Assembly (NCBI GenBank): GCA_036785375.1
Contig: JAWMAR010000024.1
Span: forward strand, 5,270,001 to 5,334,000
Reading direction: 5' to 3'
Origin: Leucoraja ocellata
Taxonomy: Eukaryota
Length of the DNA: 64,000 nt
Within the stretch, counting starts at the first letter, position 1, and each line of letters starts with the position of its first letter. Both the position numbers and the translations under genes were made by a program. Of the stretch, positions 4,697-56,320 are shown in pieces. The notes beneath the pieces were generated by a model, which worked only from the letters and a program-made list of their open reading frames with translations, had not been told where the DNA came from and made no database searches.

Positions 4697-4885
4697 ACTA
4701 AACAGAGGAACATCCTGCGAATAGGAATCCACTCACTTGGCTCAGTGTTATGGGGAGACGATGTTGGCCTTAATGAAAACCCAGAATCTGCATACAGTCT
4801 CACGAGATTTCTCTATGCACTCCGTGGACTTCTCAGAACATCTCTTTCTGCCTGTATGATTACTGTGCCAGCATACCTTATTCAG
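4697..4885 (+). CDS. ELP4: ELP4 internal coding exon (exon 7 equivalent), 189 nt
   Basis: Acceptor ctctcttcctgcag|, donor cag|gttaga. Reads [22 protein letters not shown]...[26 protein letters not shown], the conserved ELP4 'NILRIGI..LGS.LWGDD' and '[12 protein letters not shown]' blocks. Phase 0-0. Confidence 0.97.
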
Positions 4886-7478: not shown

Positions 7479-8350
7479 CATAGAGTCATAGAGTGGGTAC
7501 ATTGTGGAAACAGGCCTTCGGCCCAACTTGCCCATACCGGCCAACAATGTCCCAGCTACCCTAGTCCCACTTGCCTACGCTTGATCCATGTACCTGTCCA
7601 ACTGTTTCTTAAACAATGGGATAGTCCCAGCCTCAACAACCTCTTCTGGCAGCTTGTTCCATACACCCACCACCCTCTGTCTGAAAAAGTTACCCCTCGG
7701 ATTCCTATTAAATCTTTTCCCCTTCACCTTGAACCTATGTCCTCTGGTCCTCGATTCTCCTACTCTGGGTAAAAGACTCTGTGCATCTACCCGATCTATT
7801 CCCCTCATGATTTTGTATACGTCTATACAATCTCCCCTCATCCTCCTACGATCCATGGAATAGAGACCAGGCCTACTCAACCTCTCCCTATAGCTCACAC
7901 CCTCTAGTCCTGGCAACATCCTCGTAAATCATTTCTGAACCCTTTCAAGCTTGATAATATCTTTCCTATAACATGGTGCCCAGAACTGAACATAATATTC
8001 TAAATGCGGTCTCATCAACATCTTATACAACTGCAACATGACCTCCTAACTTCTATACTCAATACTCTGTCTGATGAAGGCCAAAGTGCCAAAAGCCTTT
8101 TTGACCACCTTAGCTCGACTTTCAAGGAACCATGCACTAGATCCCTCTGCTCTACCACACTACCCAGAGGCCTACCATTTACTGTGTAGGTCCTGCCCTT
8201 GTTCGACATCCCAAAATGCAACACCTCACACTTCTCTGTATTAAATTCCATCAACCATTCCTCCACCCACCTGGCCAATCGATCCAGATCCTGCTGCAAT
8301 CGTTCACAACCTTCTTCACTATCTGCAAAACCACTAACGTTTGTATCATC
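7479..8350 (-). mobile_element. CR1/HER1 LINE, 5'-truncated
   Basis: Minus-strand frames read QQDLDRLARWVEEWLMEFNTEKCEVLHFG and MLPGLEGVSYRERL...RRRMRGD.I.VYKI...SRTRGH.FKV...FF.QRVVGVWNKLPEEVVEA. The 3' UTR ends in a (catagagt)-type repeat tail. Confidence 0.9.
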
Positions 8351-8607
8351 ATCATAATGGCACCAAAGGTCTAATTTCCAAAGCTGCCATGATACGAAGA
8401 AGGAAAATAAGCTGGGACATAAGGAAGCTGTGGAAGAATATAGTTAAGTAAACAAAAATCTGAAAAAATGACTGTAATGTGAGCATAGTAAATTGTCAAT
8501 TTTTACATGAATTATTAGAAACAAAAGACATATTCAAATTGAGGAAACATAAAGAGCTCTGAGATAAAGTATAGCATAATTAGAAAACAAGCCAAATCCA
8601 GTCCTGT

Positions 8608-8786
8608 GTGTAGGAAAGAACTGCAGTTGCTGGTTAAATTCGAAGATAGATACAAAATGCTGGAGTAACTCAGCAGGACAGGCAGCATCTCCGGAGAGAA
8701 GGAATTCGACCTGAAACATCACCAGAGACTCTCCAGCGACGCTGCCTATCCTGCTGAATTACTCCAGCATATTGTGTCTATCTTCC
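8608..8786. repeat. Fold-back pair of Penelope-type terminal repeats
   Basis: gaagatagatacaaaatgctggagtaactcagcaggacaggcagc is inverted against gctgcctatcctgctgaattactccagcatattgtgtctatcttc. Confidence 0.75.
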
Positions 8787-9196
8787 AAATGCAGTCCTTG
8801 CACATATTATTTTCAGACATTGGTCTCACCAAGGTTATATCCAATAGGAACAATATATTTTTGTACTAAAATCCTTTTATGTAAAGCCCAGCATTCATTT
8901 TGACCTTGATTCTTTGCTACACATGTGAATTTGCATACAATTTTATACAAAAATACCTATGTCACCTGAATTCAAACTCAGTTCGAACTCTATAGTATGC
9001 TTTGGCCACTAATTCCAGTGTAGACTACAACATTTATCTTACAACTAATATCAAGTGAACTTGTGTATAGAATCTTGTTTTTAATCTACATCTTTCCTTA
9101 AATTGTGGTGTTACATTTGCTGTCTTGCAAGCTGCAGAAGCCAATCTAGATTCATTCATTAGCCATGCTGGATCATTTGAATATGACACTGACCAC

Positions 9197-10075
9197 AGTT
9201 TGCTGATGACACTGTGGTGGTGGGCCTGATCTCAGACAACGACAAGAAGGCCTACCGGGAGGAGGTGGCTGGTCTAGCACTCTGGTGCCAGGATAACAGC
9301 CTCCTCTTGAACATCAAAAAAACGAAGGAGCTGATCATGGACTTTAGGAGGGCACATCATCCGACGACGTACACTCCATTGGGGATAAATGGGGATCCTG
9401 TGGATAGGGTGAACTGTTTTAAATATCTGGGAGTCCACATCTCCGAGGATATGACATGGACATCACACGCTTCAGCACTCGTGAGTAAGGCAAGGCAGCG
9501 CCTTTACCACCTCAGGCAATTGAGGAAATTCAGAGTGTCTTCGAGGTTCCTCCAGTGTTTCTACGCAGCGGCGGTGGAAAGCATCTTCTCCGGGAATATT
9601 ACCATCTGGTTTGGGAATTGCTCTGCCAAGGACAAGAAGGCTCTGCAGAGAGTAGTGCGTTCGGCCAAACGCACTATGGGAACTTCACTTGCCCCCCTGC
9701 AGGAACTATACATCAGGAGGTGCAACTCCAGAGCCAACAATATCATGAGAGACCCCTTCCACCCCTGCAACGGACTGTTCCAGCTGCTACGGTCAGGCAA
9801 ACGCCTCCATTGCCATACGGTGAGAACGGAGAGATTGAGAAGGAGTTTCTTCCCAGAGGTCATTCGGACTGTAAACGCATATCTCACCAGGGACTAACTC
9901 TACTGAACGTTTTTCCTTCCATTATTTATTATGTAAAAGAATATGTGTGTTATGATTGTGTTTATAGTTTGTTTGGTTGTTTGTCTTTTGCACAAAAGTC
10001 TGCGAGCATTGCCACTTTCATTTCACTGCACATCTCGTATGTGTATGTGACAAATAAACTTGACTTGACTTGACT
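9197..10075 (+). mobile_element. Rex1/Babar-type LINE, 5'-truncated, ORF end intact
   Basis: Frame is open from FADDTVVVGLISDND..AYREEV through NIKKTKELIMDFRR and FKYLGVHIS to the stop at 9897. It is followed by a 3' UTR, AATAAA and a (CTTGA)n tail. Confidence 0.85.
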
Positions 10076-10956: not shown

Positions 10957-13344
10957 GCACCTTTAGTTTCTTGATTTATGGTATACTCTGCATTTACACT
11001 TTCTTTGGGCCCATATACAACTCCTCTTGCTTCTTCTTGGCTACCAGCAAAGTGATACTTCCTCTTAAATGCCTTTATCTCTTTCATAAATATTTGGGCT
11101 ATTTCATCTTGCCTGTGCTTTTAAAATGCACTTTTCTGGCCTTTCACTATGCATACAAGTAAACCTGAGCTGTTAGCAAACTCTGCCCATGTAGAGTACA
11201 ACAAATCATTGTGTTCACTGTAAAATCAACACGTTGATTTTAAAGTTCTCCTATCTGTTTTCAAATTCTTCGGTTGCCCTGTTATCCTTTCTCTGTAACT
11301 GAATCCACCCCCACAAATCTTTCTAATTTTGTTTGATCCTCCAGGTTGACCTAGCGCATTCCTAATGCCTTTGGCTGCCTAGCTAAATTAGAAATCCCTT
11401 CCCTAAACATCTGCATGTCTCACTTTCAATACCTGAAGGCAGAAACCCTTATCACATTTACAAAAGTATATCTATGAGCACCTATGGTCATGAGTAATAG
11501 GAGCAGAATTAGGACATTCAATCATGGCGGAAATATCTCTCCCTCCTAACCCCATTCCCCACTCTTGATGTGCTTATAGGGCTGGTGTCAGAAACTAATG
11601 AGCAAATCTAATTTAATTTTCAGTCAGCATCGTTACAATGGTCTAAATTGCCCCTTTCTGAGCAGCGTCTCCATAGTTCCTGTTCTCCTTAACACCAATT
11701 GCTTTCTCTCTTCCTCAGTTCTGACGAATACTCTTCAATGTAAACCGTTAAATGGCTTCTCTTTTCTCAGGACGAGCATGGGTAGGGCATCTTGATTGGC
11801 ATTGACGAGTTGAGCCAAAGGGCCTGTTTTGTGCAGTATGACAGAAATGCTGCTTAACTGGCTGTGTTTATCCAGAATTTCTGTTTCAAATTCCAGTATT
11901 TAAGAGTTTTATTTTTTCTATCACTGTTAAATTCACTGTGGCTTCTCTTCCAGGCATGTCTCCCTTAACGAAGATGTCTTCCTTGCTCCAATGACATTTT
12001 TTTTTCTCTTTCCACAGATGCTGAGATCTTCAAACATTTCTGTAATTGTCTCCCTTAAAACCCACCTCTTTTACAAAGGTCTTCGTGCTTTGTGTCAAAT
12101 TTGTCCTGATAAATCTTTCATGAATTGTTTTGATGCCTTGTTAACTTACTGCTTCATGCTAACTGCTATGTACATCCACATTATTGTTGCTGCTGTTTCA
12201 ATGCTTCTGATGATGATGATGACCCCTTGATGGTATTAGTTCAGAAGTTTCAAGGCATGATGTGTACGTTTCGTAATTGATAGCAATCCAGTGAAATTGG
12301 GATTATTGGCATTCTTGATGGGAGATGGGACTGGGATCTGCAATAAAAGGAGGGCTAAGCGTCGATGAACATCACTTTTTTAGTATAGAATCTGGCCACC
12401 CAATTTGAGTCACGTTGGACATGATCCGAGTTGGTGGACTCAGTCAGATTAGTATAAGGTCTGATAGAACGTTCAGGATTGGATTGGATTTCATTGGTCT
12501 ATCTGGGACATATGACAATAAAACACTCTTGACTCTTGACTGAGCTGTTAAATATACCTTGTTTGACAGATTGGGATGATTTGCTGAGTATTACCACATG
12601 TAACCTGCTTTTAATCAATATTTGGTATTTCATCCTCCTACTGATCAATACAATGTTTGAGATTGTTATTTTTACATTTCAAATGCTCCTTTTCAATAAA
12701 TCAAGGGCCCAACCGGGTAATTTGCCATAACAGGGCATGCAATAGATTGTCTGTTTCAGGAGTTGAATGACACAGCCAGCCCAACATTGCCGACAAAGAA
12801 TAATTAAGGTTTTTAATGCTAGGGACATTAACCAAGGAGAAGATAGTGATTTTCATTTGATTATGTATGTAAATGGTTCATATTTTCCAAGATCTAGCTG
12901 TGATTTTTTTTTTAATTGTCAGAGGGCAGTGTGGTACAGTGGGAATTGGTTGCTCTCACAGCTGTTGGGTCTAAGGCCCATCGCCTCATATGCGTTAATT
13001 AATAATTGGTGAGGATTTTCCTCATTTTTTCACCTCAGTGTTGCATCTTACCTCCAACAAACTTCCCCTTGGGATTTGAACTGATTTTTCAGAACTATTG
13101 GAAACTGTTCAACCAATAGCAACTGCATTCCAGTGCCATGGTCATTTGAACCTCGGTAGTCAAAGTGTGATATATAGATGATGTATTTCATCATCTTGTG
13201 CATAACTTATTAATAACTCAACGGGTAAACCACCAGGTCTTCTGTGCTATATGGTATGGGATTAAGAGGCTTTTGGATAAGCACAAGGATATGCAGAGAA
13301 TGTAGCAATATAGATCACATAGGCAGATGAGATTAGTTTAACTT

Positions 13345-14122
13345 TATTTATTTATTTTATTATTTATTTCGAACAGAATAAAAAAATAAAAAGCAAGTGT
13401 GAAACAGCATACAAAAAACAAAAACAAAAATATTTATAAAGTGTCATAAACAATATCTATAAATAAATGAAATCATATGTGTCTGAAAAGGAGCAGGAAG
13501 AAGCCAAAGCTTATTAATTCCCATCCCTTATTCAACTGCTTGTAATTATCTTATACAAATTTAGCAGCTATATGTACACCATATGTACACCGAATTATTT
13601 ACATTTATACACTAATCAAATATTTACAAAGCCATACAACAAATAAAAAAATTAAAAGAAAAGAAAAAACCCTCATATTCTATACAGTATCTTAGTCATA
13701 TATACAACTCATCACTCTATAATCACCATTCCCAATACAATCAGTATAACAAATATCCCACTCACAATCACCTATCCTCATCCCAATATCCTTTTAAACA
13801 AGTGTTTTTGTACATCTTTTTAAACTGAATTATGCTTGTGCTAAGTTTTATCTCCTGTTCCAGACCATTCCACAAATTCACACCACAGATTGCTATGCAC
13901 ATACTTTTAAGAGTTGTTCTGACATTGAGTTTTTTTTAAATTATGTTCCCCTCTCAAATTATACCCACCCTGTCTTTCCATAAACAGTTTTTGTATATTT
14001 CTTGGAAGTAAATTATTTCTTGCTTTGTACATGATTTGCGCAGTCTTAAATTTAACCAGATCGGTGAACTTCAGTGTATGTGACTTTAAGAATAATAAAT
14101 TGGTATGTTCAAGATATCCAAC
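13345..14122 (-). mobile_element. Crack/Daphne/L2-like LINE 3' end nested in an old CR1 3' UTR
   Basis: Minus strand reads VGYLEHTNLLFLKSHTLKFTDLVKFKTAQIMYKARNNLLP...GYNLRG, then after a frameshift RTTLKSMCIAICGVNLWNGL. The long AT-rich UTR ends in (TAAA)n. 9-bp TSD GTTTAACTT at 13336-13344 and 14123-14131. Confidence 0.75.
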
Positions 14123-15204
14123 GTTTAACTTGGCATCATGTTTGGCCTGTTCCTGTGTTGTACTGTTCTATGTTCTCTCATGTCAAGAGTCACAGTTGCG
14201 GTTTACCATTTCATCCTTTTTACCAATGTTCATAAGGCTATTCGGCCAATCAAGTCTACTCCACCATTCAATCTTTCCCTCACAACCCTGTTCTACTGCC
14301 TTTGCCCCGTAACCCCTGACACCCTTACTGATCAAGAATTAATGCTGACATCCCAGATGCTGATTGGTGCTCAAAGAACCATTTGGCAAATACCAAATAT
14401 GAATGTTAATATTTATACAGTTCATGTTCCTTCCACACTTATTTCGGGATGCTATTGTTGCTTTGCCTCGGTGCAGTTATAAGCAGCTACGTTCTGTAAC
14501 TTTCTGGGATAATCTACTTTTTCCCCTATAGATGCTTGCCTCCATAGCATTCTGGAAATTTTTGGCGAGAATTGAGACCTGTGCCTGGTGTAGCTAACAT
14601 TTTAACCAATTACCCTTACATAAACTTAAACTCAGAAGCCAGAACTCATCATTTTCATCTGTTAACACTAATATGAAGATTATTCAAAACATGTCTGAAT
14701 TAAAATGAGGTTCTGAGAATATTCTCCAATAATATTTAACAATGTCATTTTCAATTCATGTCTGCTTCTGAATGTATTAAATCAGCGGTGCATTTGTAAA
14801 GGACAAGACTTCAGATTGAAGTCTTTTCCGTAAAATAACATGCCATCTATTAATGTGACATTAGCAATAAGGTGATGTATTTCCTTGCGGCACTGCACTT
14901 CACAACAGTCTTCAAGTCAGCCTCTGGGTTCACATTTCTTTCACTGTAAAACAACAACTATGACTTGGGAGATTTTCTATTTTTTTGCATTATCAATTAC
15001 CAATGTTCATAAACTATTTCCGAGCAGTGAATGAGTCTTTGTTCAATTGCAGAATTTACTGGAATTTATAATAGGGCTAATGTGATACTCTTTGACATTC
15101 AATGGAAGTTTCATTATCATCACTTTCCAGTTATCCACCAGAATTTTTATGAAACAATGAGATAATTACATATAATACTACCTTGTCTTTTGGCTCTCAT
15201 AATT

Positions 15205-15790
15205 TTATACGTTTATATTAGGTCTCCGTTCAGCCTCTGATGTTCCAGAGAAAACAATCCAAGATTGTCCAATCCCTCCTTAGAGCTAATACCTTCAAAT
15301 CCAGGCAGCATTCTGGTAAACTTCTCCTGCACCCTCTCCAATGCCTCCACATCCTCCCTGTAAAGGATCGGCCAGAACTGCAGACAATCCAAATACAGCT
15401 TAACCACAGATGTATAAAGTTCTCATTGCATTATGACTTCCTGACTTTAAACTCAATGCCCCTACCGATGATACTGTACGCCTTCTTTTCCACTCCATCT
15501 ACTTGTGTTGCTACATTTAGGAAGCTATTATGGACTTAGACCCCAAGATCCCTGTCACAGTCAGTGCTGTTAAGGGTCCTGCTATCAACTGTATACTTTC
15601 CTTTTACATCTGACCTCACAAAGTGCAACATCTCATACCTGCCTGTACTTGAACTATATCTACCATTCTGTGTGTCCCCCCCCATATCTTTAACTGATCT
15701 ATATTCTGCTGTATCCTTTGACTGCCTTCTTCATTGTCCACAATTCCAATTTTTGTTTCTTCTGCAAACAAGCAAACCAACCCATTTAAG
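15205..15790 (-). mobile_element. Decayed CR1 LINE fragment
   Basis: LDCLQFWP..YREDVEALERVQEKFTRMLPG...LGLFSLEHQRLNGDLI. Confidence 0.8.
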
Positions 15791-16807
15791 CAGTAATCAT
15801 AAACCCAGTTAAGGAGAAATACTTTGTGATGTATTCTTTTTTTCTCTTCAGCAAATAGAACTCTAAATAGTTTACGTCTGCCACGCTAGGAAATAACTCA
15901 GCAAATTAGTGATTTTTATTTCATAATCTTCTAACATATACCAAGAGGTGACAGTTTTAGATTTGTTCAAGAAAGCACAGTTTCTGTTTCTGCCTTTATT
16001 TTGGTATATTTCCATTGTTTCACTGTTATTTTTTTTTAAAAGAAGTTTACATATTTGAAAATTTATTGGGATGGATGATTGGAATTTACATTGAAGTGCA
16101 GTCTGTATCTGGGTAAAAGGCTTTAGGAGGAGTTTGGTTTGCAAGGTTGGAATTACATTTCTTTGGATAGGGTAGATGGAATGGCCAAGGTTTCAAATTT
16201 ACAGGGCAGTCATAACATGAATGAGAAATTTCTTCAAAGGAAAAAAAAAAAACCATGAGGATTGTGGAGGCTCAGTAATCCAGTATACCCTGGGAAAAGA
16301 TTAGTATATTTGTTTAACATTAAAGGAATCAAGAGGTACAAATTTAGAATGGGAAAATGTCAATGACATAAAAGATCAACCCTAATTTATTGAATGGTGA
16401 AGCAGGAAACGGGACCTAAATGCCAGACACACACACATAGACACAGACACAGGCACACGCACACACACACACGCATGCAACAAGTCATGAACTCTACCTG
16501 AAATGATTAAATGATTATTTTCGATTGATTGAATTGTTTATATAAATGTAGTCCGCTTCACAGAGCTATTTTTTCCAGCAACAATGCAACAACTATTTTC
16601 TTGGATAGACAGCATGATCTGTGAACAATTTCTGCCTATTCCGTAATCCAAAAGCAAAACATTGCAGATGTTAGGAATCCGAAATAAAAACAAAATTTTG
16701 AAAATATTCAGCAGATCATTTCTGATGAAAGACAAAATATTGAATTTGATTTTCATTCACTGTTGTCTATTCTTGTGCATTCCAAGAAAATGGTTCTGTA
16801 ATAAAAA

Positions 16808-16975
16808 GAAACTGCAGATGCTGGTTCATACCAAAGACAGACACAAAATACTGGAGTAACTATGTGGGTCAAGCAGTGTCTCTGGAGAAAATGGATAGGT
16901 GACGTGTCAGGTTGGGATCCTTCTTCAGACTCTGACCCAAAACGTCACCTGTCCATTTTCTCCAGAGATGCTCTC
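16808..16975. repeat. Fold-back pair of Penelope-type terminal repeats
   Basis: tctctggagaaaatggataggtgacgt is inverted against acgtcacctgtccattttctccagaga. Confidence 0.75.
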
Positions 16976-19900
16976 AAAATAATTGAAAAACATTGCAAGT
17001 CAGCTAAACGATGTCCCAAGTCTTTGATGACTATGAAACATGTCAAGAGCTTTAAAGAATCTGAACACCCTCAAACACTGGGGGGAAAAAAACAATAAAA
17101 TACAATTAACAAGAGCACAAAAATCCAATTAATAAGAAGTAGAAAAATGTATTAAAATCCTGGTTCTCATCGGCCATTCTTCTTCATTGGAATTAATGGG
17201 CTGTTCCTGCTTCAGGTTTATTAAGCAGATTTCCCAGCATCGCCACGAGGCTATAGCCTCAAGGTTACGCTCCACTGCTGGACCCTGTGGCCAATGTCAA
17301 GAGTGCAGTCAAGAGAAACCTTAGCAGAGACTGGAAGCCTTCAATGGCTTACAAGGGTAATTGCCAACTATTTTGGCATTACACTTTCTAATATTTTACA
17401 ACCTGCCCTGGCCTTTCATTATGATGTATGCTCAAAATCTGTACAAAATAATTAGTAATTAAAGTAAAAAACACCTTAACTTGATGGCTGCTTAGCTTAA
17501 TATATATATACACAAATAAAGTACATCGGAATTGGACGGTGTTATTTGGTAGTTTCTAAGTTGTGTTCCAATCCTCTCTAAAATTAACTTCGATTCACTT
17601 AAGATTCAGTTGATACTACTGTTTGAGTGGCAGTGACTGCACTAATCCTAAGACGTTGAACTGTTTTGGTTCTCATGGGGTTTCTTAGAAATTCAGAGGA
17701 AGTGCTCTAATGTTCCTTATGAAGGGAAAAGACATATTGGAGACATGCCAAGCAAATATTGTGAACATTTAATGAGTTCTTTAAGGAGTTTTATTCTATC
17801 TGCAAATTATCAAGTTCCTTTTAAAAAAAAAGTCAAGAATTCAAAGTATTGTCAAAGTGACTACCTGTATTGGCAAAGTCAGTGAGAAATTGATGTCCTG
17901 GTTACTTGGAGAAATTTGTAACAAATCAAGAAACTACAAGAGTGAATAACCAAATCAAATCCATATAAAGGGACTGTTGATGGGCATTCAAATTTACTTT
18001 TGAAAATACGATGGTTGCAGGAACATTCTACATCAAATAATCCATAAACGTTAAGCTAATTTAAATGCACCAAAAATTGAATACTTCAGACTCCAGCTGT
18101 GCTCACTATTGGTTGCATGGACAGCTGTTAATGTTGCTGTAAATGTAGATACATTATTAGCCTCAGTAAAAATAACTATTTCTGCATTCCACTGTTGTAT
18201 CAATGTTTTGAAAGGGCAGATGTATTTGTTAAGAATTACTGTGTTTAGTTTTACAAGCAGAAGTTTCTGATAGGCAGACCTGTTTTGTAAAAAATGGTTA
18301 AATTTTCTGACCGTCTCAATCAAACACTAAACTGCAGAGTGAGCTGTCATTAAGTGGAGTGAAGCTGGCAAGAATTTTCATGCAGTCAGTGCTACTCAGT
18401 TCCCAGAGTCCCTGCTGTGCAGTTGTTTAACTCTCCAAGAAGCCTGTTAAAGAGTCCCTGAGAGCATGTGTAAAGCCCTCCATGTTAATAGTTAATTGGA
18501 TAGGATGGCAAGATGAGAGGACAGCTGAACATGTGGGCCTCTCAGTCTCAAGCACTGGTGGACTTTTAGTTTAATAATAGCAGCTGTTCACATTGTTGAA
18601 CAACTTTGTTTTCTTCAGTTCCACAAATGATGAAAAGAAGAACGATTCCTCAGAAACTTGCCTTTTTATTGGAAAGTAGAGAGCTCCCCTGCTGCTCCTG
18701 CTCTGCCACAGCTTCAAACAACATCACGTGCTGCTAATTCTCCAATCATTGGAGACAGTGTGGGATCTCATAACCGTACATCTAGCATACTGTTTTATTT
18801 CCTTTGCAATGATTATGACAGAAAAAAGAAAACATGTAGGGAAGGCGCTATCAGTGTCAACATTATTTGTCATGGAACGTTACTTGAATATAAATGGGAA
18901 ATTAGTTAAAATAAGTATACCCTTTCAACAGATAGCTTTCTTTATTGCTGGTTACAAGACTAAGCATCTATATCTGGTACACAAAGGGAATTCGCATAAC
19001 ATGAAGTATAGGATTGTTCATTCAAGTACTTACTTCAAAGTGTTGAGAGAGATATAGATTCCATATTCAACTCTCTTTTGGAACCTGATGGGTGCCCATA
19101 GAACTGACAGCAGCAGTTTTGAATGGAATTACTTATCCGAATGGGGTCAGAGTTAAATTGCAAGTGTCTGGGACTGATTTCAACCCATGTTTATTTAATA
19201 TTATTTATTCTGAAGTAACATGCGGATCAAGTAAATGCAACAACATTATGCTCACTAGATATTGTGTTACTATTATTCAGTCATTTATTAATTCTTTGAA
19301 ATTTCCACAATGTTAAAAGTGCAGACATTTTTAGAAGCACCTGTAAAAGATTCCCCGGGATTAAACTTCGTTGTGCAACATCATCCAATTAATTTGTCTA
19401 AATATACATAAGTGAAATAGAGTTGGACAAAACATATCTGGGAACAAGGCCTGGTGTTTTAAGGTCCACAACTAAATGATGTAAGCCTGAGTCAGTCAAC
19501 TTCTCATCATGGTGTGGGAATAGTCATCTGTTCAGGCATATGGAATCTTTGGCTTCCATACTCTACAGTCGGTAATTACACAGAATCTCGGTCATTGGTA
19601 AACGATTCAGAACAAAGGGGACAAAACAACCTCTGGATTTGCCCCATTTAGAAACGCAGCCACAAGGCATGTATATGAAATTGTATACATATGGCACTGA
19701 CTTTCAAGTATTAGGTTTGTTGATTGTGTCTTGTCCGTGTCACCATTATACAACATAATATGGACATACAAATTTTGTTTCTACTGGATATTTGCTTAAC
19801 CATGAATTGAAAGTCCTGATAGATAGGAGCAGGATGAAAATTCTATTTTCTTTGTTTTGCCTGTTTCCATTTTTAACTTTCATTTTAGTATTTTTACTGC

Positions 19901-23958: not shown

Positions 23959-24067
23959 AACAAAGCAGTTATAGACCGTGTGGTAAAATTATCAGATACT
24001 GTGATTGGTCTTGAATCATTTAATGCTTCTGAGAGAGAAACCAATCCAATCTACAAGGACTATCATG
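23959..24067 (+). CDS. ELP4: ELP4 internal coding exon (exon 8 equivalent), 109 nt
   Basis: Acceptor ttcttctatcctctacag|, donor g|gtaagt. Reads [36 protein letters not shown]+G (ELP4 'SD.V.GLESF.GSERETNP.YKDYHG'). Phase 0-1. Confidence 0.97.
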
Positions 24068-25092: not shown

Positions 25093-25199
25093 GTTTATTC
25101 CATGTTCGTCAGCTTCCTCGGCTTAATTGTTTAATCTCTGATGTGCCTGATACAAAGGATCTTGCATTCAAATTGAAACGAAAATTGTTCACTATTGAG
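25093..25199 (+). CDS. ELP4: ELP4 internal coding exon (exon 9 equivalent), 107 nt
   Basis: Acceptor attttccttaag|, donor gag|gtagga. Completes the split Gly codon and reads [35 protein letters not shown] (ELP4 '[14 protein letters not shown]'). Phase 1-0. Not in the ORF track. Confidence 0.97.
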
Positions 25200-28979: not shown

Positions 28980-29420
28980 AAAAGTCTGCCTGTCTAATCC
29001 TATTTCTTTCCACTTTGGAATCTTAATTAGGAGGAGATAAAAACCATCATTTGACTAAATTATTGTCTTGAATCTGTAGCAAAAGGTATAATCCGCAATT
29101 GGGCCAATTAGTGCACCCTGTAGTTAGCCATGCTGAGGCAGGCAATGTGATTAGAGCTGACACCAGCCTAGTTCCCACTGCTGCTTTGCCAGGTATGATG
29201 GTCAGACTTCAAAGGGCTTGAGGCATCAGCAGGGCAAGGTTTGGAGGCCAACTTTTGGTCCGTCTGTTAATCTCCCTGCTAAACTGCAATGCCCCTCGCA
29301 CAAAACGAGCTTACACGACACAATCATGCGGCATTAAAGTTTCAGTTGAGTTATGCCAATTGCCTTTGATTTTCTGATGATTGACCAAAGGATGCCTATA
29401 CAGCTAGACACATACTCAAA
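28980..29420. promoter_or_regulatory. Candidate retinal-type enhancer (HS234-like position)
   Basis: Otx/Crx TAATCC at 28995 and 29089, TAATTA/CAATTA homeodomain sites and TCF-like TTCAAAG/CTTTGAT, all in unique sequence. Confidence 0.45.
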
Positions 29421-36800: not shown

Positions 36801-39429
36801 CTGCCATTTCTCCGCCCCATCTACGATTTCTTTGCCATAAAGCCATAATGTTCAACAGATGTGCTGTGATATCCTGATCCTGACATTAAGCAGAAATGCA
36901 TCATTGTAAAATAACTTGAGCTATTGCAGAAATGCCTGCCTACACCTCCAAGTGCAAAATCCCGTTAACTATTGCTTTCTTGACCTTTTACTTTGCTCCC
37001 TGTACAACCGATCCACCCATGGCATTATGGCCTTGGCCCTGGCTACATTCCCCAAGGGAATCCTCTCCCCCATCATTATTCATAACTGATTACTGGTTAG
37101 AGAGCAAGATGCCCTCAAGGGTCTCCTGAACAACCTGCCTGCTCTTTTTTTTTGTCTGTGGTTGACCACGTATTATTCTGTTTATTCAATGAAAAGGCAG
37201 GTGTAGTCAAGAGAGGTGTCAACACGAGTTGTTCAACATAAGATCAAATTCAGCCAGGCTGCGCAGGAAGTGAGTGGTGATGGATGCAAGCTAGTCATGC
37301 CTTTGTTTGTGGAAAACACATAAACTGTCCTGTTCTGAATGAGGGAAACTGTTGGAGGAGATTATTACTTCTCAGAAACATTATTTTTTAATGCACGTGG
37401 AAGGCATCAGAAAGTTTCAGGCTGGAAGGAACTGAACAAGAGGAGTAAAAATAGTTAAGGCGGGAATAATTAAATTCTGTAATTTAAAAGCAGGCTGACA
37501 CATTGTGTTTTCCATAGCAACACTTTTGGTGAATTATCAAAAAAATTAAACTTCAATGTTTGTGGGGTGGGAAAGGAGAGGGGTGGTTGCAGGGACAATG
37601 ATGTTTGAGGCCTTGACAACCAGATTTGCTAGAGTAGGTGAAGTCTGACAAAACGATGGCTTAAAGTTCAGTGACCAGAGAATATTAGTGTGTGGTGTTG
37701 GGTGTTGGTATTCAGCCTGCTCAACAGATATCTGCTCAACAAATATCAATGTCTTTGTCTGTAATTTTAACAACAGTGTCAAGATTGAACCAGAAAGGAT
37801 ATGAAGTATAGCTAATTCAGATGAAATCTGGTCAGAGAGAGGAGGGCACCAAAAAAATTCAAATGGTCAATACCACAGCAGTGTTCCTCGCAGAATGGCA
37901 TAGAGCATGCACTTGGTATCCTAGTAATGATTAGAAATGTGACTCTATAAATGAAATAATTGGAATGACTACTGGAACATTCTATGTTGAGTGGTTCACT
38001 TCCTGGTGAATGTTACCTGTTGCTCAGCTAACTCCCTAAAGCCATTTCACCATGTACAAAGCTTAGACTACACCAGACTGAACCAGTTTGGCATATCAAG
38101 GTCAAAGCAGTTTGGCACATCAGGAGTCCAGCTAATATTCAGCATAATGTTAGTTAGCTAACACTGGCTAAAATTTGATATCATCCATCACTGATGTGCT
38201 GTTAATACATACTGTACCATATAGTATGTACCCCAGCAAAGAGCATGCAAATGCAAGCTTTGAAAATTGTTAGGGAGCTGATGGGACTCTGTGTTACTGA
38301 TGGTGGTCATCCCCTGGCACTTAAGAAGTAAGGATATTATCTGCCACATTTCAGGCCAGAACTTGCTTCATTAATAGAGGATTTGCAACTGGATAAACAC
38401 TCATTACAACATAGAAGAAGGCTATTAGTTCCATGCCATCAGTTCCTGCAGAGCGATTTGCTCTTCTCCATGCCATCCTCGACACTTCTCCTTCATTTTA
38501 CTCCTTCGCAGATGGTTAAAGGCTGAACTGTTGCAATGCAGGCTGCAATTAACTTCATCAGCTCCATCCGTATTTGTTGAGCAGAGGGTCCTGTGCTGTC
38601 CACAGTTTCCAAGATCTTTATTTTTGGACAATGTTGTACAGCACCAACAGATTACATAGAGCAAACAAACTGATCCAGGAGTTTTTGAGCATTTCAGTTC
38701 AGACATGTCTCAATATTCCATAGAGCAAATCAACTTGGCTGAAGACTAGCATGTAGGAGGTGAGGAGGTCAATTGGAAGACAATATGGATTATCTATCCA
38801 TTCTGGTTCTGGATGAACTTGGTTACAAACTTGTATCCATTCTTTTATTTTCTCAATCATTATTTGAAATTCTTTAAGTTGTTGCAGACCAGGAATATTG
38901 TCAGTTCCATTCTGAGATTTCTATCTATTGGCAGTGATAGAGGACATACTTTATCCCAGAATATCTTTGTAATGAGGATATAGCTGTTATCAAATATAAC
39001 TAGGATTCTTATACTTGATAACCATATAAGGACCCTGAATGTCAACCTGAACAAACCATTCATGTCAAGGAAGTTGGTGACCAGATTCAGCCATTATGCT
39101 GCAAGGATGATGTATTATTGATGGATAGTCCACAACATTTGGAAGAAGTGAATGCAACTGAAGAAGAGAAAAGCAAATGTAATTTAAAATCTCGTTCATT
39201 CTAAAGTGGACCAATAGTTTTTCGGAAACTTAATTTACAGTGGGATGCTGTCAAAATTGCCTAAGAAATGTCATTGTCTCTCGCCCTTAGCTAAGAAATA
39301 AATGTAATTAAAGTATGCAAAACAGACAGAATATTTTATAATTGTACATAGAATTCAGGAAACTTTAAAGTTCTTTGTATTGTGAGCTTCCACTGCATTT
39401 CATTTTAACACTCCTTACCACTTCCACTT

Positions 39430-39830
39430 TGACCTGTCTAACCTTGGCCTTCTCTACCGAGAGGCCAAATTGGAAGAAAACTTCATTTTTCATTTGTGCA
39501 GCCTATAATCCAATGGTATGAATATTGAATTTTACAATTTCAGGACACCCAGTAGTTCTATTCAACCTTTGATCATCTCTCCCGTTCTCCTACCTGACTG
39601 GTTCCATTTACCCATCATCCCTTCTCCATCTTGTTCTATCTATCACCTACATTACCTCTGCCCCAACCTCCATTCTCATAGTGCTACCTACCAGCAATAT
39701 TTTCTCTTCCATTCAGTCCTGATGCATGATCTTCACCTTAATGTCAATTTACACCTCATGCTTCCATGGATACAGCCTAGCCAACTCAGATCTTCCATTG
39801 TTCTATTTTATTTAAATTCCACATAGCATG
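39430..39830 (+). mobile_element. Old Penelope 3' remnant
   Basis: aaattggaagaaaacttcatttttcatttg...aatggtatgaatattgaatt resembles 28335-28405, and a degenerate terminal repeat follows. Confidence 0.55.
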
Positions 39831-40639
39831 GCCTCTGCAAAAATATTATTGGTTTTGTAGTCCGTGGATCTCAGGGAGGAAACAATGAGCTGTTGTTACC
39901 CCTTCCTTTTGCTTGCAATTCCAAGTGGAAAATGTATTTGAGTGTTAAAGTTAGCATTACTATGGAAGCTTCTGATATTTGGTGCCTGTTGAATGAAAAA
40001 GGACCACTTGGAGGAGGTAATGCAAGATATCAGGAGGCTGTGGGGCATGATTCTGAAAGAAATTTATGCCTTCAGGAAAATGGGAAGTGTGCAGCGACGT
40101 GAATGCTGAATTAGCGTGCTAGAGGGAGTCATGAAAATGTAGCATTAACTTTACTCCCTATTGCACATGTTGATTGAGATTCAAGTAACATTGTGACGAG
40201 GATCCATTGCAATGTAGGTTGAGTGTTTGAGATATTGTTTGGTACCTGTTTCAAATATTTCAGTTGATTACTGCTTCATATGTTGAATCTTACGATTTAT
40301 TTGCAAAAGTCTACATTGACTGATGTTCATATTGTGAGCATGTTAGATTTTTTTTGAGGCTTGAAAATTCATCACCCAACCAAAATGAATAACTAGTAAT
40401 TCTATCATGCCTAGCAAAAGCCCAGTTCTTTGCAGATGATTTCAAACAAGTGCAATTACTGTAGAGCTGTTTAATTATCTGGGCTGGGCTGATACATGGA
40501 GGAATGTTCATCCATTCTGTTACAACACTGTAGCCACAGGCTATCTCTGCTTGTCTGCGTTTACATCTGCACAAAAACTATGGCTAGAAATAACTTTCCC
40601 ACACCTTCGATCTGGGTGTTTCTTTTACTACATTAGAAA

Positions 40640-40970
40640 TTATTTTTGCTGTCAGTCACAAATCAATAATGAATGTTTCATTAAAAAATATGAAACCCAA
40701 GAAGTTCAAATTTTAACATGCAATGTGATTTAGACATTATATCTGCCAAAAGTGATTTTGTTGTGGAAGTTGTTCCCGCCTTCTGTTTTGTAGGAGATTT
40801 CATGCTCCCCTTGTAAACAGTAGATGATTTAAAACCTGTTTCTAAGATAAACTTTCCCATTGTCATTAATGAGGATGGATAATACTGAGTGACAAGTGCA
40901 TTTGGAAAAGCACAGAAAGAGCTGCTAGGTTTGTCAAAGCATTTTGCTTCAGGCATTGGACTTAAGGCCT
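40640..40970. promoter_or_regulatory. Candidate orthologue of the PAX6 SIMO (EI) lens enhancer
   Basis: Meis motifs TGACAG(-) at 40649, TGACAA(-) at 40860, TGACAA(+) at 40890 and TGACAA(-) at 40931. These are followed by a Pax6 paired-domain-like site TTCAGGCATTGG at 40948-40959. The block is ~15.7 kb into the last ELP4 intron; the human SIMO variant is ELP4 c.1143+14176 (from memory). The context is repeat-free. Confidence 0.7.
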
Positions 40971-43900
40971 TCTCTGCTTTTGTTAATTTTTAATATGTTT
41001 TATTTTTAGAAGACCGAATGCAAAGAGAAAAGAACAATTATTCTGCACAAGCATTTTTTAACCTCATGCAAGAAATATGATTTTTAAAGTGGCAGATGAA
41101 TTCTGCAGTTGCTTTATTGAAGGATTTTTGTTTTTGAATGAGTAATATAGTACACACTGCTTACTGCATCCATCCTGCCCCTTTGCAACTTCTAGGATCA
41201 AGGTGAAAAGAATTAGGGCACTAATGCACTTAATTTACATTCACTCAGTCTAACATCAGTGAGGGGCATTAAAATTGAATGAGTAAAATATTCAACATTT
41301 ATTATTTTATTTTCCCTCTGAAACAATTCCAAATAACAACATCACTATCCATTTCCTTTTTTAAAACTGCAATTGGTCACTTCTTTTTCGGCATGATTCA
41401 ACGTTGCCTGGCTGGCAACCAAATTGTGTCTCCGTATGGCTTCTTGACACTAATAATGACTGAGTTTCTGTTCGTTTGCGTGCAAGATTTCCCAAGCGGC
41501 AGTTTGGGGCTGGGATAAACTATCTATCATGATTGCATACGACTAATCTGCTTCATCCAACCCACCCAATGATTGAAATTGCATTTGACAAGTCACCTCT
41601 CCTTGGCGTGCCTGTGGTGCGCATAGCTGCAGACCATCCCCGGAAGGACATAGCAACTACTCCATATGCTGGGATCGTTTTATTTTTATCAAGAGACCTT
41701 TAGCCAACAGAGGCAGAGAAGGAAAAAAAGCAGCCCCATTTGTGGTGCATCATGTCTTTATATTTAAAAAAAAAAGTCACTTGCCCACATGTCACTATAA
41801 AATGCCATAAATAAATTCTGAAAGCTGGTTCCAGATTACTGAATCAGAATGTTTAAGGAGGTGACGAAAATCACCCAAATTAGTTTTAGCCTATTAAACC
41901 TTTCATGTTCTATATCAGAAGATATAATGTGAAGTGCTGTCTTAGGTTTGCAATACAGAACATGCAAGAATAATTCAGTTTTAAAAGCTTGCAAAGTAAA
42001 TATTTAGGAAAATGACAAAAAAATGTTCATCCAAGTCTGCCGATTGTAACATGAACTCTAGAATGGTTAGATCACTTGTAGAAATAATTTTTAATGAAAC
42101 AGTGATATAACAAGTGAAAGCTTGCCCCAAACAAAATGCTGTCAGCAGTTTGACTGGCAGTGCATTGTGTTTTTAATTTACTTGATAAAATGAATAAGCT
42201 TTGTTTTACATGCATTGAGACTTTAATTTTAACATTGGTTCGAATGCTACTGCTGTGTATTATTCCATAGAGAGCTTGAAATTTCATTATCTATTATATG
42301 TTAAAGCATAGTTTTCTCAGTTGTTAACACACACATGTTGAAGCATCATGAAAATAAGAGCAACCTTCTTTATTTTCACTGTTAGTATCATGTTCACCTA
42401 TGATAATTATGCACGTGTATAGAGTAGAAAATAAAACTGTCATTTAGTGTACTTCAAGATCGCTAAATTAATAGTAACCAGATTACACCGCATCTGTAGG
42501 TTGAGAAACATTGCTAACAATTCAGATTTATGATCTTTTATCAACATTTTAATCATTGTGATGAAAAGTCTTCATCTGGAAAGATCGACAACGTTTCTCT
42601 CTTCACAGATGCTGCCTGGACTGCTGAAAACTTACAATTTTCAGTTGTCTGTTGCATCTCCATCATTCGCAATGTTTTACATTTTAATGTCCAATTAATT
42701 TATTTGTTGTGAAACCCATGCATCTGTCAGCTATTTCTGATGGATCAAAGGTAAAAAAGATTGTTTTATTCTCCAAACATTATCCTCCCTTTTCATAGAG
42801 TGATAAATTACAATTGGCCTGACTGAGATTGATCTATTTTTGTAAAGTGAAGGATGCTAAGAGCTATGGATCAAGGCAGTGTATATAATTAAATGGTAGA
42901 ATAAGGTCAAGGAGGCAGAATGGCTCAATTTCTATCTTTCTGGAACCTGGTTTTAGGAAACCTGTTTCCAAAGTAGATTTTTATTTGGCTTTGCAAGCCT
43001 CGAGCTATTAGTTGATCTACCTGATTCAGGCATCACTGAACCAATAGAAAATCAGTTTTAATCCTAATCCATGTGCACTCTTTCCTCAATCAGCATAATA
43101 GATGTTTTACATTCCTTTTCAGTCAGCGGTGATCAATATAATGAAGTCATAATAACAGAAATAGTTATGCATATTAGCGACGCAGAAGTAGCAAGTTTCT
43201 AAAATGTAAAACAATTGTTAAAGATGAAATGTATCCCAATGGTTGTGACCTGGATTTAGTAATTATCTTGAAATTGTAGGAAATTGAAATCAACACCTTT
43301 ATTACCAAAGATAGATACAAAAAGATGGAGTAACTCTTCGAGTTTGGCAGCATCTCTGGAGAAAAGGAATAGGTGGTGTTTCAGGTTTGAACCCTTCTTC
43401 CAAAGATGGTTCTACCTTCTACCAAATGGGGAGGATTCTCTGAATGGTTTTTCATTAAGCAGATGGTAGATAAGTAATAATGTTACTGCTTTTAGTTGTA
43501 AGGATATAGAGAAAGAAGGAACTGGCAATGATATAGCAACAATACATTATCAAGATGTTCCAAGGCTCTTGAATTTTCCTTGGAAAGTGGTTATTGTTCT
43601 GATGTCCAGAATCAATTTGACCAAATTGACCAAAACATAAACAGGATTAAAATAAAATGCTTTCCTCGGACGTATAGAGAATTGCTGTTCTGTTTCTCAA
43701 ATAGTGCCATGTCCACTTGAGAAGAAAGGAATCCAGTTTTATTTTCATATGGAACTGGAACCTACAATATGCATATTGATTGATATACACTTGGTCCTAT
43801 TACATTCTTTCTCCGAGCTGCAAATGCCATCTTGGGGCCAAAACTACCCTGACACTTGCACCGACAGATCACCATGATCTACTTATGGATGTATCCCTTA

Positions 43901-52653: not shown

Positions 52654-53645
52654 TCTAAATATAATTAAAACTCTCATCTTGTTTGATTTGCATGTGTGTG
52701 GGGTTGTCCCCGAAACAACGCCAAAACAGTACATGATGGCGCTACAATTTTTGGCCCACCTTACTCACCAATGTCCTGTGATGAAAATGAAACGAGTTTC
52801 TTTCAGATTTATGTTATATTTTACAGGTTATAGAAATTTTAAACTTTAAACTTTACAAAAAACACTTTTCCACTTGCCCTGTCCATCAGCTGCGTTACAA
52901 CGACGTCACAATAGGATCCTGAATCTCAGTTACATTAAAAAACGTGATTCTCAAAAAAACCCTCAGTTTTAATCAAATTCTTCCGTTTTCATTAACAGCT
53001 AACATTGGGTTAAGGTTATTTTAAAGAAAAAACACGATTTTCATTGAGAATGCCATTTTTTTTATTGCAATTTTCATTGTGGGGTGGGGGGAGCTTAAAT
53101 TTTTTTTAAACGTGGTTTTCATTGTGGGGGGGGTGGGATAGTGGGGGGGGGTTTCATTATTTAAAAATTGCGATTTTCATTGGGGTGGGATTGGGGAGGT
53201 GGGGGAGCAGGGGGGTAGAGGGAGAGGAGGGGTGAAGAGGGGATAGAGGGAGATGAGGAGGGTAAGGAGTGGGGGGTAGAGGGAGAGGAGGGCAATGGGG
53301 GAGGTGAGGAAGGAGAGTGGGATAGGGGGGAGGAGAAGGGAAGGAAGAAGGGGAGTGAAGAGGAGGGGGAGGGAGTGCTGGGGATGAGGGGGAATGGAGA
53401 TGGATAGGGGTAGAAAGAAGGATGGCCAGGTAATGGAGGTGGAGGGAGGGGGTGATATTTTACAAGTTATTGCCATTTTGAACTTTAAAAACGTCGCAGT
53501 TGCGCTCCCACTTGCCGGCCGCGCCTGCACAGTTGGAGGAGAGTTTGCCGTGACTCGCGTCACAACGGGGATCTCTGGCGTCACAATAGGAATCCGTCAG
53601 CCACGCCTGAGCAGTTGACGGGCAATAGCGTTGCCACCACATGAA
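52654..53645 (+). mobile_element. Helitron-like non-autonomous element, 3' end not found
   Basis: Starts A|TCTAAATATAATTAAAACTCTCATCTTG. The 5' ~170 bp resemble the reverse complement of 63380-63549. Contains a G/purine-rich tract at 53180-53455. Confidence 0.45.
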
Positions 53646-53657
53646 CAATGCCAATGA

Positions 53658-54293
53658 CTTTCATTGCAAAAGGATTTGAGTATAGGAGCAGAGAGGTTCT
53701 ACTGCAGTTGTACAGGGTCTTGGTGAGACCACACCTGGAGTATTGCGTACAGTTTTGGTCTCCAAATCTGAGGAAGGACATTATTGCCATAGAGGGAGTG
53801 CAGAGACGGTTCACCAGACTGATTCCTGGGATGTCAGGACTGTCTTATGAAGAAAGACTGGATAGACTTGGTTTATACTCTCTAGAATTTAGAAGATTGA
53901 GAGGGGATCTTATAGAAACTTACAAAATTCTTAAGGGGTTGGACAGGCTAGATGCAGGAAGATTGTTCCCGATGTTGGGGAAGTCCAGGACCAGGGGTTA
54001 CAGCTTAAGGATAAAGGGGAAATCCTTTAAAACCGAGATGAGAAGAACTTTTTTCACACAGAGAGTGGTGAATCTCTGGAATTCTCTGCCACAGAGGGTA
54101 GTTGAGGCCAGTTCATTGGCTATATTTAAGAGGGAGTTAGATGTGGTCCTTGTGGCTAAGGGGATCAGGGGGTATGGAGAGAAGGCAGGTACGGGATACT
54201 GAGTTGGATGATCTGCCATGATCATATTGAATGGCGGTGCAGGGCCGAATGGCCTACTCCTGCACCTAATTTCTATGTTTCTATGTTTCTATG
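53658..54293 (+). mobile_element. CR1 LINE 3' fragment with uninterrupted ORF2 C-terminus
   Basis: FIAKGFEYRSREVLLQLYRVLVRPHLEYCVQFWSP...RRLRGDLIETYKILKG...GTGY*, with a (TTTCTATG)3 tail. Confidence 0.93.
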
Positions 54294-56320
54294 ACTTCAG
54301 TCATGATTCATATTACATGGGTATAGCAACTTTTTGAATTCATTCACAGGATGTGAGTAATGTTTGTAAAACATACAAAAAAGTGGAACTCAGCCAGACA
54401 AGCATCATCTGTGGAGGTTAAAGGTGTCTGTCAATGTTTTGAGATGCAGTGATTCAGCCCAAAATGTTGATCTTGAACTTTTGCCTCCACAGATGCTGAT
54501 AGACCCATTGAGCTCTTCTAACGTTGCTTTTTGTTCAAGATTCCAGCATTTTCTGTCTCGTTTATCTCTTTTATATTGCCTGACCTGAGTTGCTGCTCAA
54601 CCTTGTAAGTGGACAGTGAAGTGTCAACATTTTTGTGGATCTGGAGTCACACCTAAGCCAGATTTCTTATCGGTGGCTGATATATTAATAGCATGGCAGG
54701 TTTTATTCCCCTCAGGACATCGACAAGGTGCGATTAATTAACTGATTTTGAAATCTCAGCTTCTGTGGTGGGATTTGAAGTCTGCCTTGGGATCATTTAT
54801 TCAGAAAATCATAAAAACTGCATATGCAGCAAATGCAGAGTAACAAAATATGCTGGAATCACACAGCAGGTCAAGCAGCATCTGGAAGGAGAAGAGGTAT
54901 TAAAAGGTTCAGTCCATCCCTGTGTATCCTCAGCCTTCTCTAGTTTTATTTTACTAAATTAAGCAATATGTTATTGTACCCTGGGTGATAGGCAGTTTCA
55001 ACCAAACAAGATATCTTGTTATCAGCATTATATGATATTATAGGTACTGTATAGAAGCCCATTGTTTCCATCACTATATGAGTTCTTAAAGTCACAATGT
55101 GCTGAACCTGCTTAAGGTCCTCTGAAATCGCAAAGTTTACATCAAGAATATAAATCAGAAAAATCCTAGTGGTTCTGTTAACTCATCAATCCGAGGGAAA
55201 ACATGGTGAATGGGGTGGAGGAAGAAAAAGGCTGCGGTTTGACAGGAATGATCAACTGATGAACATGACCAAAAGCGAGGTTCTACGGTATCATTGTGAA
55301 ATGATTTCTATCACGCCACAGGCAAAATTCAGGGAGGGTAGGGAGGACTGTCAAATAATATTTACAGCTGAGTGATAGGTCATTAGTTAATTAAAGAGGC
55401 TAGTTCATAGTTGCCTCATGAGTTTAAGTGTCAATATGTTTTAGCAAAGAATCCAAAGCCAGTTAGATCAGTAATATGTAGGAAAGAGTGCACTAGAAAA
55501 CAAGCTCCAGCTTTGGATTTAAATGTCCCTCCCAGAGTAAATGTTCTTGGTCAATGCTAAAGTGAAACCCATCTTGGAAGTTCAGCTTCTATATCTGGAA
55601 TGTAGAATCATGAGGTTCATTGCCACCATCAGACAGAAAACAATAATCTGTCATTTCAAACACTGCCAAAAGTTTGTCACTGGCATCCTGTCATTTATGG
55701 TTTGATTTGTGAGCTGATGAGAGGCGGAAGGGAAGGCGTTCACTACCTTACAAACTACCGATCCACCTGTCTTACCAGTAATCTTGTCCCCTTCTGTGCA
55801 AAAGTCTGCCTTTCCCACATTGATCTCATTAGCCCTGACAATCCTTGAACCTGGAGAGAGATCACGTCATCCTCTATCTTGAGAGACCTCCAAATAAAGA
55901 ATTACGTTGAATGATGTCAACAGTGGCTATAGGCAATTGCAATATTTTCATAAATTTGAAAAAGAGTTTGGCTTGGCACTGCAAAATAGTCTATATCCTT
56001 CCCTTTGAATATATGACCAAAAATCTTATGTTTGAGATATTATTGCCACTGCTGTGATCAAGCAAACAAAATAATCTTCCCAATTTTACTGATTATACAT
56101 GAAACTTTATTAATAGTCAATCCCTTCATGTAATTTAGAATCTGCAAAATGATGTTGTTTATTCGATATTAAAAGGTGAATAAGTGACAGTATTTTCTCG
56201 GTTTATTAGCCGCCCTGATTTAAATGCACTGTTCAAATAATTTCCAGAAAAATGCTTGAATATTTCGTGAATATATATAGCGTGAAAATGATCTTCAGAC
56301 GAGCTAACATAATGACCTAT

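Follow-up and report, generated by a model that had tools for sequence, protein, structure and literature searches.

A probable orthologue of the PAX6 enhancer SIMO in Leucoraja ocellata carries T at the column of a human aniridia variant

Introduction

SIMO is an enhancer of PAX6 that was reportedly described in human and mouse by Bhatia et al. in 2013, a study known here through the papers that cite it. Five Meis sites, A to E, are described in the element; B, C and D each read TGACAA and lie within 77 bp (PMC5137874). In mouse, Meis1/2 occupy these three sites, which are of medium affinity, and the activity of lens reporters is lost in chick on changing two or three Meis sites and in zebrafish on changing Meis sites (PMC5137874). 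A SIMO probe is reported to be bound by the PAX6 paired domain, and the human mutant allele to drive no lens expression in zebrafish. Deletion of the SIMO core alone is reported to cause no major lens defect in mouse; it matters only when the PAX6 dose is reduced or the ectoderm enhancer (EE) is also reduced. EE, a lens enhancer that depends on Meis and receives PAX6 feedback, is alike in mode (PMC5137874), but lies upstream of PAX6, has another sequence and is distinct from SIMO.

A published alignment includes SIMO orthologues of the elephant shark and the whale shark (PMC8042745), while the element is reported to have gone undetected in medaka, stickleback and pufferfish. Both SIMO and its mechanism are already known, as are orthologues from cartilaginous fishes, and the L. 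ocellata orthologue presented here adds one species to a known element. Our literature search brought up no study in which a cartilaginous-fish SIMO was tested for function; Bhatia 2013/2014 or published figures may contain such a test.

Results and discussion

Gene context

The window, that is the whole stretch of DNA analysed (64 kb, contig C24:5270001-5334000), contains three exons of ELP4 on the plus strand. Two of the seven open reading frames that were scanned, out of 47 listed, match PF05625 (ELP4/PAXNEB family). An exon of 189 bp (4697-4885), an exon of 109 bp (23959-24067) and the last-but-one exon of 107 bp (25093-25199, in frame, PF05625 positions 293-331) all have AG/GT ends. The last exon begins at C24:5376151, where matching phase, a stop and the sole match of a short motif were found. 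With exon joins taken from the sequence, the last ELP4 intron measures about 81 kb, and T40945, the base discussed below, lies 15,746 bases into it.

Past the end of ELP4, the minus strand carries a paired-box gene (C24:5399240-5417757). The best match of its first paired exon is PAX6 (6pax, E 8.8e-25), and the later exons, down to about C24:5399240, were placed by motif matches. The block described below is situated as SIMO is: it lies inside the last intron of ELP4 and downstream of PAX6, and the two genes are on opposite strands. Its distance from the PAX6 paired box is 107 kb, compared with a quoted distance of about 150 kb in human. The second PAX6 paired-box exon (C24:5416831-5417063), of which there is a single assembled copy, shows a frame change at a short run of C, likely a sequencing slip.

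A counterpart of human cre21 (hg19 11:31676830-31677382) was recognised by eye at about 28990-29290, between the exon and SIMO as in human. Judged by its distance from SIMO, it may correspond to the retina enhancer region HS2/HS3. Elsewhere in the window, the open frames at 9193-9897 and 53645-54202 resemble pieces of LINE retroelements, and the first of them matches PF09004.

The Meis motifs and the SIMO core

The first-pass annotation, made from the sequence of the window, had reported one TGACAG and three TGACAA motifs, the last three within 77 bp, and a further site adjoining them. A hexamer scan of the 64-kb window found all of these in place. The TGACAG lies on the minus strand at 40649-40654, the TGACAA sites lie at 40860-40865 (minus), 40890-40895 (plus) and 40931-40936 (minus), and the three span exactly 77 bp (40860-40936). 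The adjoining 19-mer begins at 40941, 4 bases past the last Meis site, and position 40954 is indeed C.

As a pattern, the cluster is unremarkable. The window holds 109 hexamers of the TGACAG/TGACAA type and two clusters of three sites in at most 77 bp, and dinucleotide shuffles yielded at least one such cluster in 68 of 200 cases and four sites in 331 bp in 128 of 200. The bare Meis-motif cluster shows no excess over chance, and since shuffles reproduce it this readily, motif clustering was dropped as proof of SIMO. The other cluster in the window starts at 55648 (three sites in 46 bp, 55648-55693; four in 194 bp, 55648-55841).

These shuffles would suit a chance cluster of short motifs within neutral intron DNA, a reading that is refuted by alignment and to which we give practically no weight. 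The block at 40845-40958 aligns without gaps to the published human SIMO (hg38 11:31664297-31664410, as printed in the dbCNS supplement of PMC8042745), at the syntenic place, with 103 of 114 bases identical, including the first 58 in succession. Compared with the mouse minSIMO oligonucleotide (PMC5137874 S1 Table), the minus strand of 40849-40962 is identical at 96 of 114 positions, also without a gap. The elephant shark and whale shark rows of the dbCNS alignment (PMC8042745) agree with 40845-40958 at 111 and 109 of 114 positions, respectively, which by itself points to a probable cartilaginous-fish genome, as the first-pass annotation had supposed. All these identities to published sequences were counted by eye and not computed.

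The alignment also gives each Meis site a name. The TGACAA at 40931-40936 (minus) falls on the Meis site of the gel-shift oligonucleotide published for SIMO_B, that at 40890-40895 (plus) is the middle site of minSIMO, SIMO_C, and that at 40860-40865 (minus) is its last site, SIMO_D. The earlier attribution of the three motifs to the Meis sites of SIMO is borne out by these alignments. Like human and mouse SIMO (PMC5137874), the L. ocellata block lies in the last ELP4 intron and has three TGACAA sites within 77 bp in the same orientations, and it carries the GCTC box common to both (here at 40919-40922).

Conservation extends into a flank at 40768-40826 (plus), where two mouse SIMO primers match. 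The SIMO_B/C/D primer agrees at 20 of 23 bases at 40804-40826, which none of 100 shuffles reached, and another primer at 18 of 21 bases at 40768-40788 (by eye). Genome-wide, the block matched only this locus and its mirror copy, described below. A minus-strand open reading frame of 102 codons overlaps the block (40681-40989) and lacks a start-to-stop gene context, and Rfam gave no matches at gathering score in 39500-43000.

Because of this sequence identity and of its position, and not because of the motif cluster, we regard the block at 40845-40958 as the SIMO orthologue in the last ELP4 intron (probability about 0.9), as the first-pass annotation had proposed. Its B, C and D sites stand at the published spacing, and it probably works in the way described in mouse and zebrafish. 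Relative to the elephant shark and whale shark rows, it represents one further species, and no other difference was found.

The first-pass annotation had also pointed to 41280-41700 as a block to which human SIMO might align instead. This region probably belongs, as the SIMO_A part, to the conserved fragment of about 1.4 kb that also includes the core, on weaker evidence than the core itself. A mouse SIMO_A primer matches 16 of 18 bases at 41493-41510, as did 5 of 100 shuffles, and the partner SIMO_A primer has no match within 3 mismatches. The conserved block that begins with the primer match (41493-41591, plus strand) ends in a TGACAA at 41586-41591. On the other side of the core, the TGACAG at 40649-40654 is possibly SIMO_E, a candidate named by order alone.

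Predicted function

Because all three Meis sites are intact at the same spacing, the element likely drives lens expression through them, as it does in the species studied. Meis1/2 bound to the medium-affinity B, C and D sites would switch PAX6 on in the lens. The element would act on PAX6 promoters more than 107 kb away, through looping of the kind inferred from other species, and EE would be its redundant partner. PAX6 protein would in turn bind the adjoining site, perhaps at a different strength since TG stands here in place of human CA, and expression would be maintained in this way. Binding, looping, lens activity and feedback are in this way carried over from other species to an element observed in L. 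ocellata as sequence, position, order and motifs. Since deletion of the core is mild in mouse and the element was not found in medaka, stickleback and pufferfish, conservation is no proof of need.

The aniridia column

The aniridia variant rs606231388 (C>A) is marked at position 101 of the dbCNS query (PMC8042745) and is also given as chr11:31,685,945G>T (PMC6947179). In the ungapped alignment, position 101 falls on T40945 (plus strand). This T is no sequencing slip, because the second copy of the block in the assembly has it as well. The very base at which a change silences the human element in the lens therefore differs in L. ocellata, which speaks against simply carrying lens activity over from human. 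According to the published alignment, T is also found at this column in the elephant shark, the whale shark and the coelacanth.

The first-pass annotation had instead placed the disease base at C40954. This C is shared with human, and C stands at its column in 26 of 31 alignment rows (G in 3, a gap in 2). It corresponds, however, to query position 110 (human 11:31664406), nine bases from T40945. Provided that the coordinate given in PMC8042745 is correct, position 101 rules out C40954 as the disease base, and we consider that mapping extremely improbable. The substitution C40954A, which had been put forward for a lens reporter, would not model the aniridia allele, since the disease base is at T40945.

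The corrected mapping is a useful result, as it shows that the aniridia column is not invariant among the vertebrates aligned. We counted 31 rows of the alignment block of PMC8042745, leaving out two non-human primate rows. The column holds C in 22 rows, A in 5 (all snakes), T in 3 and a gap in 1; counting the base that follows as well, 21 rows read CA, 5 AA, 2 TG, 1 TA and 1 CG. The natural TG, TA, AA and CG versions are a ready series for the tolerance of a disease-critical PAX6 site, and this series could help to judge how well conservation predicts the effects of non-coding variants. The A of the snakes is discussed in PMC8042745; no comment on T at this column was found in the accessible parts of that paper. 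In each of the five snakes, Meis site D is disrupted as well, with TTGTCC for TTGTCA at the column of 40865 (PMC8042745, supplementary fig. S4A).

The putative PAX6 feedback site

At the disease column and its neighbour, human SIMO has C-A and L. ocellata has T-G. The elephant shark and whale shark rows read T-G here too and likewise have a gap of one base after the site (PMC8042745, supplementary fig. S4A). Our literature search found no comment on the T-G version; Bhatia 2013/2014 or published figures may contain one.

Using the P6CON consensus (PMC2612750), the best register over the putative feedback site covers 40938-40957 (plus strand) with 6 mismatches in 16 positions. An equal or better score is reached at 1999 of 127654 positions in the window, and so the PAX6 site is recognised by orthology only. 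A scan with P6PHD gave no site over 40945 among the 8 best local matches. In the same register, the human site also has 6 mismatches in 16 (by eye). At positions 8-9, where the consensus is C-G, human C-A gives a match and a mismatch and L. ocellata T-G a mismatch and a match. In this inferred register, the human disease base would occupy consensus position 8 (C), which fits the reported loss of binding by C>A. The 12 supplements of PMC7056646 that were searched contain no probe sequence. The T-A of the coelacanth in the published alignment matches the consensus at neither position, which means that the column pair can be lost outright.

Two readings of the T-G pair can be weighed. When a CpG decays, it usually becomes CA or TG. 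The feedback site might have turned over by compensation, with bony vertebrates mostly keeping the C (CA) and cartilaginous fishes the G (TG), both derived by decay from an ancestral CpG. We put this forward tentatively, as a reading of the sequences that is more doubtful than probable. If it is true, PAX6 feedback persists in sharks and rays although they lack the base that, when lost in human, causes aniridia, and the mutation seen in the patient matters only on a CA background.

Another, rather unlikely reading is that the SIMO orthologue of cartilaginous fishes has weak or absent PAX6 feedback and runs on Meis alone, the feedback having been gained or strengthened in bony vertebrates. It would account for the T in place of C at the disease column, here and in both published cartilaginous fishes, and for four differences from human at 40937-40946 plus one at 40943. 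It would also suit the six of the 13 bases at 40934-40946 which, with the Meis site region set aside, differ little (both comparisons by eye). In the chick assays, moreover, activity is reported to be abolished only by changes to the Meis sites (PMC5137874). Weak feedback is opposed by the mismatches to the consensus, which equal those of the human site (6 of 16 each), with G40946 gaining a match, and by the 3' half of the site (40947-40958), which is the same as in human.

A second, inverted copy in the assembly

An identical copy of the SIMO block lies 207 kb away on the minus strand (C24:5518010-5518220). It belongs to a mirrored region, C24:5110787-5405000 and 5424090-5720000, of at least 295 kb, about 1% different between its two arms and with outer ends that lie beyond. 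The mirror covers every stretch compared in C24:5110787-5405000, and 5210001-5270000 by matches of ELP4 exons alone. The second copy starts directly behind a run of 200 N (C24:5423890-5424089), carries ELP4 and the 3' half of PAX6, and ends inside a PAX6 intron.

Within the window, 61484 bases were aligned between the copies, and the 581 differences among them, 505 substitutions and 76 indels, are distributed patchily. About 1.7 kb around 7922-9682 is absent from the second copy. There is no difference at 40232-42510, the third-longest such tract in the window. This tract is weak support for the conservation of SIMO, given that two more tracts equal or exceed it in length. The two longest difference-free tracts are at 12458-15638 and 16697-18986, in an ELP4 intron; they could be further PAX6 downstream enhancers or a shared haplotype.

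Sequencing runs over 37100-40000 were compared as contigs, from which copy number is not derivable. At some of the variant clusters, both versions are present among the contigs of X15 and X16, with roughly half the depth of the flanks for each, and these two runs may come from the assembled individual. A close relative (run X1) has one contig across the same clusters and paired variants of its own elsewhere. In run X3, 4 of 30 bins were covered.

We take the inverted second copy to be, with high probability, an uncollapsed haplotype. The alternative is a genuine duplication, inverted, recent and at least 295 kb long; the species would then have SIMO, ELP4, the enhancers downstream and the 3' half of PAX6 in duplicate. 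An identical SIMO copy on the other strand is what such a duplication predicts, and the presence of both variant versions in X15 and X16, two samples of one study, is compatible with it. We nevertheless consider a duplication improbable. The second copy starts behind exactly 200 N and stops within a PAX6 intron, and its identity to the first is patchy, from 96 to 99.97%, as between two haplotypes. The single contig of the relative at the clusters, with its own paired variants elsewhere, points the same way, as does a PAX exon pair on C343 that is mirrored likewise.

This exon pair (C343, 264388 and 1207183) is one of several cases in which paired-box exons are doubled with near-equal scores, the others being on C5 and C992, which suggests further doubled regions in the assembly.
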